Shown here: positions 47,594 to 55,901 of the stretch, one piece after another
How the letters are laid out: every line of letters starts with the position of its first letter
How positions within the stretch are numbered: the first letter of the stretch is position 1
Source: an uncultured Bacilli bacterium
GTDB lineage: Bacteria > Bacillota_I > Bacilli_A > RF39 > UBA660
Direction of reading: 5' to 3'
Length of the DNA: 64,000 nt
Assembly (NCBI GenBank): GCA_934101575.1
Contig: CAKORJ010000001.1
Location: forward strand, 1,238 to 65,237
Notes under the pieces: model-generated
Told to the model about the DNA's origin: nothing
The model's database searches: none
The model's input: only the letters and a program-made list of their open reading frames with translations
Translations under genes and position numbers: made by a program

Positions 47594-47635
47594 TTGTCAA
47601 TTTTTTGTTTAAATGTGTAAAATTGGTTGCTTTTT
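47594..47635 (+). promoter_or_regulatory. Putative promoter of the T7SS operon, containing the shared 18-nt element
   Basis: TTGTCA – 18 nt – TAAAAT. The 18-mer TAAAATTGGTTGCTTTTT (47618-47635) recurs exactly at 51162-51179. Confidence 0.4.
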
Positions 47636-47684
47636 ATTCTATTTATGATAAACTTAAACTGTAGAGTATAGTTTTAAGATAGAG

Positions 47685-47948
47685 ATGGTGATGTGTGTGA
47701 ATAAAGTTCTAATTATTGTATATGTGCCTTTTATTGAAGAGCAATATGAGCTTTTTATTCCTATTAATAAAAAGGTGGGAACTATAAAAAAGATATTGAT
47801 GGAATCAATAGTAGAACTTTCAAATGGTGAGATAACAAGTGATACTAATCTTAAATTATATGATAAAAATACAGGGGTACCCATTAAAAGTGATATTTTT
47901 GTAAAGGATAGCACTATAAGAAATGGTTCAAAACTTGTGTTGATGTGA
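47685..47948 (+). CDS. esaB: Type VII secretion ubiquitin-like protein EsaB/YukD
   Basis: 87 aa with size and pattern of YukD-family proteins (…IPINKKVGTIKKIL…KLYDKNTGVPIKSD…IRNGSKLVLM). Confidence 0.55.
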   Translation: MVMCVNKVLIIVYVPFIEEQYELFIPINKKVGTIKKILMESIVELSNGEITSDTNLKLYDKNTGVPIKSDIFVKDSTIRNGSKLVLM

Positions 47949-47965
47949 TGAAAGGAGGCGAGAGG

Positions 47966-48253
47966 ATGAACGATCTAAGAGTAAATTATTCTGAAACAAT
48001 TAGTGTTGGTAATAATGTAACTACAAAAGGTGGGGAGTTTGCTGAGCTTTTAAATAAAATTAAAGCTACTAATAGTGAACTTCAAACTTATTGGGAAGGT
48101 TCTGATGCTTCAAAATACTCTGGAGCAGTAGCAGAACAAGCACAATATATGCAACAATTATCTGAAACAATAAATGAAATAGGAGATTTCCTTGTTAAAA
48201 CAGGAAATGCTTATAGAGAAGCTATGGAAAGTAATTCTGCAGCTATAAAATAA
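47966..48253 (+). CDS. WXG100-family protein (EsxA-like) 1
   Basis: 96 aa, helical, with a central W-E-G (TYWEGSDA). AAAGGAGG RBS. Confidence 0.65.
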   Translation: MNDLRVNYSETISVGNNVTTKGGEFAELLNKIKATNSELQTYWEGSDASKYSGAVAEQAQYMQQLSETINEIGDFLVKTGNAYREAMESNSAAIK

Positions 48254-48275
48254 TATATATTGAAAGGAGATTAAT

Positions 48276-50927: not shown

Positions 50928-51161
50928 TTGATAATGGATAGAATTTATTTTCTGTCCTTTGTTTTGTAAAATAAAAAAACTTTTTAATTAAAGTTGTTAA
51001 ATAAAGTTGATTTTTTCAGGTTATGGTTATATTTTTTAATTAAGAATAGATTAATTTTAAGGTTGATATTGCTGAGGCTTTAGAGGAAGGTGACAAACTT
51101 TTTCTAAATAATACTTCAAAAGAATAGAATTTAATTTTATTCTTTTTTATATTTTATTCTT

Positions 51162-51179
51162 TAAAATTGGTTGCTTTTT
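51162..51179 (+). promoter_or_regulatory. Second copy of the 18-nt element TAAAATTGGTTGCTTTTT, upstream of essC
   Basis: Exact 18/18 match to 47618-47635. Lies ~70 nt upstream of the essC start. Confidence 0.4.
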
Positions 51180-51248
51180 TTGTTATTTCTAGGTATATTT
51201 ATATATAAGGTATGGGGTTTTGTGAAAATTTATGTTAGGAGGGCATTT

Positions 51249-54200
51249 ATGAGAGTTTCGCTTATTAAGGAAGATGTAATTAAAGATTTAATATTGCCCG
51301 AGAAGATAAGTGGTAGTTATTGGTTAACGGATTATAATGAAGATGGTGTTATAGAAAACCTTGTTAATATTGAGGCTACTGATAGTGGTTGGAAGGTTGT
51401 TAGCAATGATGATATTTTTTGTATTGTTAATGATAAAAAGGTTTCTAGTATAATTCTTAAAGAATATAATTTTTATTCTATAAAAGATAGGGGTGAGGAT
51501 AAATATATTATTATATATTGTTCTCCGGTTAATGAGACTAGACTTTCTTGTTATGAGCTTAATTCGCTTATTGATGGTGTTACTATTGGAAATGATCAAT
51601 CTAATGATATTGTGTTTATTTCTGATAATTTATCTAATAGGCATGCTAGAATATCTCTTGTTAGTTTGGAAAGTAAAGAGTCTGCTTCTAACAATAAACT
51701 TATTATTAAAGATTTTGATGAGAAATATAAGATTAAGTCTAGTAAATGGGGTATATATGTAAATAATAAGCGGGTTAAGAGACAACAAATTCTTGAGAAT
51801 GGTGATGTTATTTTTATAATGGGATTAAAAATAATAGTTGCTAAACTTGAAAATAAATATATATGTTATGTTAATAATCCTAATGATCAGGTATTTGTGG
51901 AGAAACTTGATAGTATAAGAAGAAATATTACTGAAGAGGATTTTTATGAAGCTCCGGATGATAAGGAAATGTCTCTTTATGATGTTGATGATTATTTTCA
52001 TAAGAAACCTAGATTTATTAATAAGATAGTTCCTTTAGAACTTAATGTTGATGCTCCGCCTGCTAAGGAAAATGATCAAGGTATGTCCCTTCTTCTTACT
52101 ATAGGGCCTATGCTTACTATGAGTATGACATCTCTTGTTATGGGGTTTGCTGCGATTAATAATGTTGTTAATAATGGTGCTTCTTGGTCTTCTGCTATGC
52201 CTTCTCTTGTTATTTGTGGGGCTATGTTTGGTAGTATGTTTTTATGGCCTCTTCTTACTAAAAGATATGAAAAGAGAAGAAGAAAGAAAAATGAAAAAGA
52301 ACGTCAAGTTAAATATAGTAAATATATAGATAATAAGAGAAAAGTTATACAAAATGAGGTTAAGAGACAAAGTGCTATTTTATCTATGAGTTTTCCTACT
52401 ACTTTAGAATGTCAAAATATTATTGCTAATAAGGAAACTAAGCTTTGGGAAAGAAGAATTGGTGATGATGATTTTTTAAAGGTTAATTTAGGTTTAGGAA
52501 ATCAAGATATGAAAATACATATTAAATATCCAGAGGATCATTTTTCTCTTGTTGAGGATAATTTAAAAGATATTGTTAATCAACTTGGTAGTGAACCTAA
52601 GATGCTTAATAATGTTCCTATTGAACTTTCTTTTATTGAACATAATATTGTTGGTATAATTGGTGAAAATGACACTGTTTCTAATTATATGTCTCAATTA
52701 CTTGTTCAAGTTATGGCTTTTCACAGTTATGATAATTTAAAGATAGTTCTTCTTACTAATGATAAGAATTCTAGTAATTGGGATTTTTTAAGAGTTCTTC
52801 CTCATACTTGGAGTGATGATAGGTCTATTAGGTATTTTGGTGCAACAAATGGTGAACATAAAGAAATATGTTATAATCTTGAGAGAGTATTTATGAGAAG
52901 AAGTGAGGCGGTAAGGGATACTGATTCAAGTTTTGATCCTCGTTATTTAGTTATTACTGATTCTTTTAAATCTGTTAGAAATTTTGAGTTTATTAAAAAG
53001 GTTTTGAATGAAAAAGATGATTTAGGTTTTAGTTTGGTTATTTTAGATGATAAGGTTGTTAATTTACCTGATCAATGTCAAACTTTTATAGATGTTTTTG
53101 ATGGTAATGGTTCTTTATTTAAGAGTTTGCTTAATAATCAGACTATTAATTTTAAACTTGATAATAATATTTATGATTATTATAATTGTGCTAGAATTTT
53201 GTCTAATATACCTATTGAAATTGATAAAGATAAAGTTGGTAATCTTCCTGATAAGGTTGGATTTTTGCAAATGTATGATGTTGGTAAGATTGAACAACTT
53301 AATATAGAGAATAGATGGAGCGATAATAATCCTGTTTTATCTTTGGGTGCTCCTGTTGGATTTGGTCGTGATGGTGAAAAGGTTATTTTGGATTTACATG
53401 AAAAGTATCATGGTCCACATGGGCTTATTGCTGGTATGACTGGGTCTGGTAAATCGGAGTTTATAATTACTTATATTTTATCTATGGCTATTAATTTTCA
53501 TCCTTATGAAGTCCAATTTATTCTTATTGATTATAAGGGTGGGGGTCTTGCTGGGGCTTTTGAAAACTCTAATACTGGTGAAAAGTTGCCTCATTTAGTT
53601 GGTACTATTACTAACTTAGATTCTAATGAAATAAAAAGATCTCTTGCTTCTATTGAAAGTGAACTTAAGAGAAGACAGAGAGCGTTTAATAAAGCTAGAG
53701 ATATTTCTGGTGAAAGTACTGTTGATATTTATAAGTATCAAAAGATGTATAGAGAAAAAATTGTTGATGAACCAGTTTCTCATTTATTTATAATTTGTGA
53801 TGAATTTGCGGAACTTAAGAGTGATCAACCTGATTTTATGGATCAACTTGTTTCTACAGCACGTATAGGGCGTAGTTTAGGGGTGCATTTAATCTTAGCT
53901 ACTCAAAAGCCAAGTGGTGTTGTGGATCCACAGATTTGGAGTAATACTAGATTTAGAGTTTGTCTTAGAGTTCAAGATAAGTCTGATAGTTCGGAAGTTA
54001 TAAAATGTCCAGATGCGGCATATTTAAAACAAACAGGTAGATTTTATTTTCAGGTTGGTTTTAATGAAATATTTATTTTAGGACAAGCAGCATGGGCTGG
54101 TGGGCAATATATTCCTTCTGAAAGAATAAGAAAGACTATTGATACTTCACTTAATTTTATTAATGATATTGGATATGTTATAAAAACAAGTGAAACTAGG

Positions 54201-55901
54201 AAAAAACAAAAGGTTGTTAATTCTTATGGTGAAGAGCTTTCTAATATTGTTAAGTATTTATCTGGTCTTGCTATTAATGATGGTATTAATTGTTTACCAC
54301 TTTGGCTTGCTAAGATACCTGGTATTATATTTATAACTAATTTGATGAATAAGTATGGATATGTAAAGGAACAATTTGTTATTAATCCTGTTATTGGTGA
54401 ATTTGATGATCCTAATAGACAACAACAACATCTTCTTACTCTTCCTCTTTCTAGTAATGGTAATGCTGTTGTGTATGGTATTGCTGGAAGTGGTAAGGAA
54501 AACTTTATAAATACTGTTGTTTATTCTTCTATGCTTTGTTATAGTCCGGATGAAGTTAATTTTTATATATTAGATTTTGGGGCAGAAACTTTGAGAAATT
54601 TAAAAAATTCACCACTTGTGGGAGATGTACTTACTAGTGATGATGATGAAAAAATTAGTAATTTATTTAAGATGATGTATAACATTATTGATGAACGTAA
54701 AAAGATGTTTGTTGATTATGGTGGTAGTTATTTATCTTATGTAAAAGCTACTAATAATGTTGTTCCTGCTATTGTTATTGTTATTAATAACTATGAATCC
54801 TATCAAGAAACATATCCAGCATATGATGATGATTTAATTGTTTTAACAAGAGATTGTATGAAGTATGGAATATACTTTGTTGTGACTGTTACTACTCCTA
54901 ATGGAATGAGGTTTAAATTAAAACAAAACTTTAATCAAACATTTGTACTTGGACAAAATAATGAAGATGATTATGTTACTATACTTGGTAATGTTAAGAA
55001 AACTTATCCTTCTAAGATATTTGGTCGTGGTATTATTAAAACAGATTCAGTTTATGAATTTCAAACTGCTATGGTTGCTCAACCAGATGATATTCAAAAT
55101 CAAATTAAGATTAAATGTGATGAACTTAATGCATTATATCAAAAGTCTGCATCTAGTGTTCCTGTGTTACCTGAGATAGTTTCATATAAGGATATAGCTT
55201 CTGATCTCGGTAATAGTAATTATTTAGTTATTGGACTTAGCAAGAATACTTTAAGACCTGTTTCTTATAATTATAGAAAGGATTTTATAAATATTATTAC
55301 TACTCTTGATATTACTCTTGCTTATCCTTTGATTGAGCCTTTAATTAATGAACTTTTATATTTGAAGAATAATGTTGTGTTTATTAATGCTGAGGATTAT
55401 AGTTTGGATAGTAAGTATAGAAATTATATAAATTATGAGGATTCTAATTTTGATAAGGTATTTATGGATCTGGAGTCTTATATTGCTAGTAAGTATTCTG
55501 TTTATAAGACTAATAATTATAACAAGAATATATTTGGTGATATAGCTAATATTACAGTTATTATAGATGGTATTTCATCATTTATGAATAAGATTAGTGA
55601 CGATAATAAGGCTAAATTTAAAGATTTATGTTCTATGGGAAAAGATTTAGGTATTATGAATATTATTATCATTGATAGTGTTGATAATATACGTAAAGTG
55701 GAGGCTGAAGCTTGGTATAAAAATTCTGTTAATGGTAATGATGGTATTTGGATTGGTAATGGTATTAATGAACAATTCTCTCTTAAAGTTACTCAAAGAA
55801 CTAAAGAGCTTAAAGAAGAGTTACCTGATAATTTCTGTTTTGTGGTTAATAGGGGTAAACCTGTGTTAACTAAATTAGTAGAGGAATTTGAATTATCTTA
55901 A
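51249..55901 (+). CDS. essC: Type VII secretion FtsK/SpoIIIE-family ATPase EssC/YukB
   Basis: About 1550 aa. N-terminal FHA-like region, two TM segments, then three P-loop ATPase domains. First Walker A: [14 protein letters not shown]…LIDYKGGG. Second: [13 protein letters not shown] at 51249 with an AGGAGGG RBS. Confidence 0.85.

Follow-up and report, generated by a model that had tools for sequence, protein, structure and literature searches.

A type VII secretion gene cluster without linked EssB, EsaA, or EssA homologues in an uncultured Bacilli lineage of the gut

We describe a type VII secretion system (T7SS) gene cluster at 47.6–55.9 kb of a 64-kb stretch of DNA (contig CAKORJ010000001.1) from an uncultured Bacilli bacterium; this whole stretch is called the window below, and cluster coordinates are positions in it. 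We consider it probable that its eight same-direction genes form an intact T7SS gene cluster of an EssC lineage here termed lineage B, distinct from canonical T7SSb and working by the mechanism proposed below. On the sequences compared, the best-supported list of conserved, linked lineage-B parts is EssC, a YukD-like protein, and a pair of WXG100 proteins, plus an adaptor/effector cassette, and the machine probably works without homologues of EssB, EsaA, or EssA. T7SS clusters lacking these three genes have already been published (Garrett, Higginson & Palmer 2024, PMC11217815), and the general phenomenon is thus not new. The component set found here (an EssC whose FHA domains have a degenerate phosphothreonine site, a YukD-like protein, and a WXG100 pair, but neither a kinase, a phosphatase, nor an FHA adaptor, and nothing of the EspG-like, beta-propeller, or Ig-like kind) matches none of T7SSc to T7SSj. 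Those subtypes were defined from RefSeq genomes (PMC11217815), and the lineage-B set is found in uncultured lineages absent from RefSeq; our literature search found no later named subtype such as T7SSk.

The make-up of the T7SS channel in Bacillota and the list of indispensable subunits are still debated, and every studied or catalogued system from T7SSa to T7SSj has presumed machine parts beyond EssC, YukD, and EsxA. If lineage B (54 species-level genomes) is self-sufficient, it would define the minimal T7SS translocon and offer a naturally small system for reconstitution and structural studies, and its comparison with a sister lineage that carries kinase, phosphatase, and FHA proteins would be a natural test of phosphorylation control through the EssC FHA domain. 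Should unlinked EssB-like partners turn up, the finding would shrink to an unusual split arrangement. Record titles place the lineage in gut assemblies from humans, rabbits, ruminants, mice, and chickens, and because of this presence its T7SS may matter for interbacterial competition in the gut.

Cluster layout, EssC, and the YukD-like protein

All cluster genes lie on the + strand, and all eight open reading frames (ORFs) are intact:

47691..47948, +, putative YukD/EsaB-like (TsxB) ubiquitin-fold protein, 85 aa (longest ORF from 47685, 87 aa)
47966..48253, +, W1, WXG100 protein no. 1, candidate core TsxA1 (PF06013, 44.1 bits)
48276..48563, +, W2, WXG100 protein no. 2, candidate core TsxA2 (PF06013, 37.1 bits)
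48636..48929, +, W3, WXG100 protein no. 3, candidate Lap-like partner (PF06013, 29.3 bits)
48942..49250, +, W4, WXG100 protein no. 4, candidate Lap-like partner (PF06013, 33.5 bits)
49263..49733, +, p156, helical WXG-like protein, 156 aa (family profile hidden Markov model [HMM], alignment, AF2 model)
49752..50927, +, p395, candidate secreted substrate, 391 aa (N-terminal domain homology)
50936..50957, +, terminator-like hairpin followed by a T-run (consensus scan only)
51249..55901, +, EssC/TsxC ATPase, 1550 aa (TIGR03928, FHA and FtsK_SpoIIIE domains)

A preliminary description of this DNA had listed six genes, namely a YukD/EsaB protein, four WXG100 proteins, and EssC. All six are present, as judged by PF06013, TIGR03928, and YukD family matches and by predicted fold, but p156 and p395, which lie between W4 and essC, had been overlooked. 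The only protein of the block with predicted transmembrane (TM) helices is EssC, and no plausible small membrane-protein gene fits in the intergenic gaps of 115, 73, and 322 bp. The last of these, an AT-rich noncoding stretch at 50928-51248, separates p395 from essC, and because of the terminator-like hairpin 3' of p395 found in the consensus scan, essC may be transcribed separately from the upstream genes. A promoter scan was uninformative, returning fewer sites (64) than shuffled sequence (73.8). In relatives the position of this gap is occupied by small ORFs of 80-175 aa, which may be immunity genes.

EssC scored 1022.5 bits against TIGR03928, the NCBIfam EssC equivalog (cut-off 778.4), and Pfam identified FHA (E 5.2e-10) and FtsK_SpoIIIE domains. 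Its N-terminal FHA domains are followed by two TM helices (residues 285-337) and three FtsK-like ATPase domains, D1 to D3. The preliminary description had counted three P-loops; canonical Walker A loops occur in two domains only (GMTGSGKS in D1 and GIAGSGKE in D2), with none in D3. The D1 Walker A loop, its Walker B motif (DEFAELK), and a further 17-residue segment are at least 90% conserved among 51 lineage-B sequences, and D1 is the predicted catalytic ATPase domain. When translated from the ATG at 51249, an identical EssC is found in 41 indexed blocks of an assembly collection (23 contigs read, the longest 261 kb); the longer version from the TTG at 51171 had no exact match. That the large ATPase might instead be an FtsK/SpoIIIE DNA translocase with unrelated small proteins beside it is virtually inconceivable: FtsK_SpoIIIE domains are present and the organism sporulates, but the FtsK model NF007615 gave only 53.2 bits against a cut-off of 1566, a combination of FHA domains, two TM helices, and three ATPase domains is seen, the best PDB match is YukB (9qks, E 3.4e-125, residues 271-1020), and YukD-like homologues adjoin essC in 70 of 82 loci, with WXG100 genes linked to it in 60 of 82. 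We regard the translocase identity as refuted by the model scores, the linkage, and the YukB match, and the ATPase as a genuine T7SS component, as had been claimed.

The YukD-like protein had no direct match in Pfam, NCBIfam, or PDB sequence searches, a 40-sequence profile searched against PDB returned only non-significant ubiquilin matches (E 0.24), and none of its 48 homologues among 5.8 billion proteins carries a Pfam annotation. At the family level, PF08817 (YukD) was matched by 16 of 40 aligned members (best E 3.3e-10). An AF2 (AlphaFold2) model built from 39 sequences (pLDDT 82.4) is a beta-grasp of the order beta-beta-alpha-beta-beta, and its Foldseek matches are ubiquitin-like proteins that include the EccD ubiquitin-like (Ubl) domains 7np7_D2 (TMq 0.72) and 4kv3 (TMq 0.75); the Ubl domains of mycobacterial EccD are the T7SSa counterparts of YukD. 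The C-terminus reads KLVLM, with no terminal Gly-Gly. The family-level matches and the predicted fold point to a YukD/EsaB-like ubiquitin fold.

Related loci and the missing partners

One genome per GTDB species was scanned with this EssC, yielding 80 loci that were taken with ±10-kb flanks and subjected to ORF calling, clustering, and synteny mapping; results for relatives below refer to these flanks. A neighbour-joining tree of the TM-D1 region of EssC, rooted on Bacillus subtilis YukB from PDB 9qks, splits into lineage A (24 loci) and lineage B (54 loci; 51 full-length EssC sequences, the window's included, are in the tree). Lineage B comprises 42 close loci (at least 46% identity) and 12 intermediate ones, and its sources are uncultured, low-GC gut metagenome-assembled genomes (MAGs) labelled Bacilli, Tenericutes, Erysipelotrichaceae, or Candidatus Faecisoma; the hosts of lineage A are Lachnospiraceae, Oscillospiraceae, Paenibacillus, and others. 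One relative (L002) comes from a complete 1.49-Mb chromosome, of which 24.6 kb was examined, and NCBI labels some relatives Tenericutes/Mycoplasmatota. Six T7SS contigs (L007, L020, L022, L034, L038, and L050) were deposited as Muribaculaceae or Phocaeicola vulgatus MAGs, probably through mis-binning or mislabelling.

The two lineages differ in what stands beside essC. In lineage A the neighbours are a PP2C phosphatase, a Ser/Thr kinase anchored in the membrane, and two FHA proteins, one of the DUF6382-FHA and one of the VWA-TM-FHA type. Often there is also a LytTR regulator, together with an Ig-like protein (1700-2100 aa) that has a signal peptide (SP) and a C-terminal TM helix. HMMs built from the lineage-A PP2C, Ser/Thr kinase, DUF6382-FHA, LytTR, and Ig-like SP/TM proteins matched nearly all lineage-A loci. 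In lineage B they matched no locus, whether close (0 of 42) or intermediate (0 of 12), and the window had no match either. No EssB candidate was found in any of the 54 lineage-B loci, nor any kinase, phosphatase, FHA adaptor, or conserved envelope-spanning protein. In the window, Pfam searches of every called gene across the 64 kb revealed no YukC/EssB, EssA, EsaA/YueB, protein kinase, PP2C, DUF6382, DUF5050, or Tad pilus family, in agreement with the earlier claim that EssB, EsaA, and EssA are missing from it, and NCBIfam returned nothing for the unannotated neighbour genes.

Several lineage-A loci (L052, L058, L077, and others; e.g., L058:4445-9859) from Lachnospiraceae and Oscillospiraceae show a complete T7SSe/j-like layout, in the order DUF6382-FHA, PP2C, kinase, a small protein, a 1740-2083-aa Ig-like SP/TM protein, EssC, YukD, two WXG100 proteins, and then Mbeg1/lipase-like proteins with TM segments. 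The lipase-like proteins may be reverse-orientation lipase toxins.

The EssC sequences themselves suggest a place for this EssC outside canonical T7SSb. Over TM-D1 the window EssC is 63% identical to close relatives, 47% to lineage A, and 33% to YukB, which was the only T7SSb reference compared as well as the tree outgroup, and the alignment with YukB begins only past the FHA region. Because TIGR03928 scores lineage-A EssC proteins higher still (1052-1117 bits), a pass indicates an EssC-type ATPase rather than T7SSb. The FHA phosphothreonine (pThr)-binding motif GR...SxxH...NG is intact in every lineage-A EssC and degenerate across lineage B (IGN...SNRH...KWG in the window versus IGR...S.HA...S.NGT in lineage A), and lineage-A EssC proteins match pThr-binding FHA families such as FhaB, OdhI, and GarA in NCBIfam, with no such match for the window EssC. 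Loss of the pThr site is consistent, at the sequence level, with absence of the kinase/phosphatase control module of the sister lineage. The original label "T7SSb-like" is therefore misleading, the nearest accessory-bearing relatives being T7SSe/j-like.

The window could nonetheless hold one part of an ordinary T7SSb whose EssB, EsaA, and EssA are encoded elsewhere. EssC passes the EssC equivalog, it shares a degenerate FHA pThr site with the EssC proteins of T7SSb, B. subtilis YukD bridges YukB and YukC, and our view was of the window and the flanked loci rather than the rest of each genome. Against this stand the higher TIGR03928 scores of the kinase-type lineage-A proteins, the low identity to YukB with an unaligned FHA region, the lack of such genes in all 54 lineage-B loci, and the clustering of core genes with essC in described T7SSb and variants (PMC11217815), and we find a split T7SSb distinctly unlikely. 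The preliminary description had left the choice between a minimal or divergent architecture and partners encoded elsewhere; the comparative data (accessory genes in 0 of 54 loci) favour the former.

Several points weigh against reading lineage B as a T7SS that is distinct from T7SSb and independent of EssB. The evidence is all computational and comes from MAGs, the neighbour-joining tree has no bootstrap support, and sampling was seeded by this EssC. The partner survey spans ±10 kb around each essC, and unlinked partners elsewhere in the genome are possible. The FHA pThr sites of T7SSb EssC proteins are typically degenerate too, and there the domains bind EssB (PMC11217815), so that FHA degeneracy alone is no argument against an EssB-like partner. 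In B. subtilis, YukD binds YukB and promotes the association of YukB with YukC (bioRxiv 10.1101/2025.01.24.634720); by analogy, the conserved YukD-like protein could hint at an EssB-like partner that we did not see. Finally, a family that we call c10 shows that extra components exist in part of lineage B. These are proteins of 335-350 aa encoded directly 3' of essC in 11 loci of one sub-clade of close relatives (e.g., L021:14641-15684, L024:8798-9805, and L033:14631-15680, plus eight other loci), with the invariant segment IIGI.N..H.GATTLMYM and no Pfam, NCBIfam, or PDB-profile match; c10 may be a T7SS component specific to that sub-clade.

The genes flanking the cluster agree with the preliminary description, a cadherin-like protein lying 5' and rplS-lepB directly 3':

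45606..47576, +, cadherin-like surface protein, 5' neighbour of the cluster (PF12733, E 9.3e-19)
56029-56379, rplS, directly 3' of essC
56392-56910, lepB, after rplS

Besides its four PF12733 domains, the cadherin-like protein has a signal peptide, a TM helix at the C-terminus, and a zinc ribbon; its TM segments were located at residues 20 and 510. It bears on the possibility that lineage B is a variant T7SS needing extra envelope components that are non-homologous, variable, or unlinked, such as a cadherin-like analogue of TsxI or EsaA, or c10-like proteins. The architecture of this neighbour (signal peptide, Ig-like repeats, C-terminal TM helix) is of the TsxI type (PMC11217815), similar proteins occur near essC in L004, L013, L016, L024, L031, and L042, and c10 follows essC in its sub-clade. 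The cadherin-like family HMM, however, matched only 5 of 42 close loci, at no fixed position and with varying distance and side, surface proteins of this type are common elsewhere in the window (e.g., 9245-10969 and 31045-32619), and c10 is not present in the window. A need for such extra components seems to us unlikely. Given its scattered occurrence in the close loci, we do not regard the cadherin-like protein as a conserved analogue of TsxI or EsaA; it probably does not belong to the secretion system and is listed for its TsxI-like architecture.

Lineage-B clusters are bordered by housekeeping genes that have nothing to do with secretion and differ between loci (among them ftsH-tilS, parA-parB-abgT, and rplS-lepB), and no neighbour beyond the T7SS genes is conserved except c10. 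The preliminary description had the cluster "inserted" 5' of rplS. This was not borne out by the synteny comparison, which puts only 3 of 43 close loci (42 relatives and the window) near rplS, namely the window, L006, and L015. Recent horizontal insertion was also considered and dropped, as the GC content of the cluster (0.28-0.30) is not distinctive beside that of its flanks (0.25-0.28).

WXG100 proteins and the candidate substrate

The four small proteins (~95-102 aa) all exceed the PF06013 gathering cut-off of 27.3 bits. W1 carries W-E-G and no exact YxxxD/E motif, W2 carries W-S-G and a C-terminal YKSVD (YxxxD), W3 has W-S-G with YEKSD and a weak DUF3130 match (E 0.069), and W4 has W-T-G with YNSID. 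W1 to W4 and the ~90 N-terminal residues of p156 and p395 align on two invariant residues, the Trp of WxG and a Tyr close to where helix 2 ends; in W2, W3, W4, and p156 this Tyr gives YxxxD/E. The four-gene array had been called unusual, but it is conserved in about 20 relatives, as a conserved pair followed by a variable pair beside the substrate gene. Mean identity to orthologues is 52% for W1 (21 orthologues) and 45% for W2 (32 orthologues), with maxima of 73-76% for the pair and of 76% for W2, as compared to means of 30% for W3 and 32% for W4. From these values W1 and W2 look like a conserved core pair, and W3 and W4 like a fast-evolving, adaptor-like pair.

In a sister sub-clade, double-WXG fusions of ~203 aa have an N-terminal half that best matches the W1 profile and a C-terminal half that best matches that of W2. 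This fusion of W1- and W2-like genes is an argument for a W1/W2 heterodimer; non-identical WXG100 pairs also occur in T7SSa, T7SSe, and T7SSg (PMC11217815). Double-WXG100 fusions of ~203-215 aa were noted at L013:7461-8072, L024:1466-2077, L029:7470-8081, L036:14658-15275, L061:4900-5514, and L014:5405-6052, where they adjoin the YukD-like gene in place of a separate W1/W2 pair.

The genes for W3, W4, and p156 lie 5' of p395. p156 has an N-terminal WXG-like hairpin (IWKSD, YKACE), a C-terminal coiled coil, and no TM segment; its family HMM found a member in 25 of the 42 close loci and in 1 of the 38 distant loci, and a single-sequence AF2 model is all-helical (pLDDT 74.8). Neither Pfam nor NCBIfam gave a significant match, Foldseek against PDB returned nothing below E 0.8, and we infer the role of p156 from context only. 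Two p156 homologues (L003:3775-4359 and L040:4982-5551) contain a LysM-like peptidoglycan-binding insert (e.g., YTVVGGDTLYAIARKNNTTVDALAKANDI...VGQVFTIP), which suggests that the protein has an extracellular destination.

p395 starts with a helical, WXG/LXG-like domain of ~90 aa, continues through a long low-complexity stretch rich in S/T/G/N, and ends in a C-terminal domain of ~60 aa. Its residues 11-100 match (26-37% identity) the N-termini of proteins of 370-1911 aa encoded at the same position in 12 relatives, where the counterpart of p395 is a much larger, variable protein presumed to be a toxin, as a rule with a small ORF after it. No Pfam or NCBIfam family matched p395, the Pfam LXG family PF04740 included; W2 is the only protein of the locus with a sub-threshold LXG match (E 0.0084). 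Nor did the large effector proteins of relatives (954-1911 aa) have any Pfam domain. A DUF4176 gene (PF13780, E 2.5e-26) sits 5' of the large protein in relatives; DUF4176 is found in 13 of 42 close relatives and is absent from the window. It is a known helper of LXG toxins (PMC12482557). Lap-like WXG100 partners are known to flank substrates (PMC11217815), and the gene order of the window resembles this pattern; p395 is a candidate secreted substrate.

The effector module of the window is reduced, with no DUF4176, no recognisable toxin domain, no small ORF 3' of p395, and a p395 that is short and largely of low complexity, as might be expected if a larger T7SS cluster were decaying into a non-functional remnant in a genome of reduced size. 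The eight ORFs are intact, however, and the D1 motifs are conserved, so such decay is unlikely; the same minimal set moreover recurs across the 54 species-level genomes, and EssC is identical in the 41 indexed blocks. Taken together, we judge a remnant highly unlikely.

Proposed mechanism and likeness to known systems

For an intact lineage-B T7SS we propose the following steps by analogy. EssC would multimerise in the membrane as both channel and motor, with the two TM helices of each protomer lining the channel and D1 hydrolysing ATP. The YukD-like protein would dock on the cytoplasmic region of EssC and stabilise the assembly, on the model of YukD, which binds YukB (bioRxiv 10.1101/2025.01.24.634720), and of the EccD Ubl domain, which binds EccC (PMC11217815). 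The W1/W2 heterodimer would be the core substrate and activator, with the YxxxD of W2 engaging the EssC ATPase domains and the dimer being exported. W3, W4, and p156 may bundle with the helical N-terminal domain of p395 to form a composite targeting signal of the kind known from Lap/LXG systems, which would let p395 be co-exported. The FHA pThr residues may have been lost alongside kinase/phosphatase control, leaving a system without phosphorylation control. A stronger proposal, which we find plausible although not probable, is that lineage B is a self-sufficient minimal T7SS, in which EssC is the sole membrane component and needs only a ubiquitin-like clamp and a WXG100 heterodimer to export Lap-bundled effectors across the envelope. 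The bacterium would be a monoderm of the gut that forms spores and has a small genome, and the system would have arisen through loss or non-gain of the control layer and of the envelope-spanning subunit of the sister lineage.

Among described systems, T7SSe/j (PMC11217815) has the same component list as lineage A, an assignment made from the list alone and apart from the accessions of that paper. This T7SSe/j-like lineage A is the closest EssC lineage with accessory genes (36-42% identity over the full length, 47% over TM-D1), and it shares with the window the EssC FHA domains, a YukD-like gene beside essC, and a non-identical WXG100 pair; in both lineages DUF4176 or Lap-like genes stand next to substrates. 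It differs in that the kinase (TsxD), PPM/PP2C (TsxF), DUF6382-FHA (TsxJ), and Ig-like SP/TM (TsxI) proteins occur in 0 of 54 lineage-B loci, in the VWA-TM-FHA protein and frequent LytTR regulator, of which the window's lineage has neither, in the intact pThr-binding motif, and in gene order, with YukD 3' of essC there and 5' of it in the window.

The Staphylococcus aureus Ess and B. subtilis Yuk systems (T7SSb) resemble the cluster in an EssC FHA lacking pThr-binding residues, in EsaB/YukD, in the WXG100 protein EsxA, and in LXG-type effectors with Lap and DUF4176 helpers. They differ in the presence of EssB/YukC, EsaA/YueB, and EssA, which are found neither in the window nor in the 54 related loci, in an EssC of the low identity to YukB given above, and in a single homodimeric EsxA where the window has a WXG100 pair. 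A variant T7SS of Bacillus anthracis secretes a WXG100 protein without EssA, EssB, or EsaA (PMC11217815). The simplest published list is that of T7SSg (Acetivibrio, Paenibacillus; PMC11217815), with two WXG100 proteins, a ubiquitin-like protein, the ATPase, and one extra protein; its ATPase TsgC has no FHA domain, unlike the EssC of the window, and neither the DUF5050 beta-propeller TsgL nor the adjacent Tad pilus genes are seen in the window. T7SSf (Clostridia; PMC11217815) resembles the cluster in partly degenerate EssC FHA motifs, a YukD-like protein, and WXG100 proteins, but it has a PPM phosphatase, TsfJ (DUF6382-FHA, two TM helices), and the AAA+/TadZ-like TsfV, none of which is in the window. 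Pfam, NCBIfam, and PDB searches revealed no link between c10 and TsfV.

The cassette can likewise be set beside the LXG/Lap modules of T7SSb. In these (Klein et al. 2022, 2024, via PMC11217815; for DUF4176, PMC12482557), two to three small WXG100-like genes lie directly 5' of a protein with a helical N-terminal targeting domain, as here, and in relatives of the window a DUF4176 gene lies between partners and effector. The differences are that the N-terminal domain of p395 is ~90 aa and not Pfam LXG, and that the window has no DUF4176, recognisable toxin domain, or immunity gene.

The window as a whole has ~27% G+C and a positive GC skew throughout, and it encodes sporulation and housekeeping genes of a Bacillota organism. 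Sporulation genes at 658-2122, 43626-44330, and 62781-63290 include a spoIIGA-type peptidase U4, a sigE-like sigma factor, a SpoIVFB-like M50 protease, and SpoIIIAH. The gene at 56976-57701, 3' of lepB, encodes 241 aa with two hydrophobic segments and no family match; it was found in the source contig only and is thus not conserved alongside the T7SS locus. At 19846-22930 are three tandem, paralogous, membrane-anchored proteins of 263, 378, and 344 aa with no informative Pfam match, two of them with nearly identical N-termini (MEVYMEKKK.NKGLIVLVVILAILLVGSIGYICYDKFMVKNLP). An ORF at 5478-6185 begins with a serine-recombinase-like motif followed by a coiled coil and may be a truncated or rearranged recombinase.

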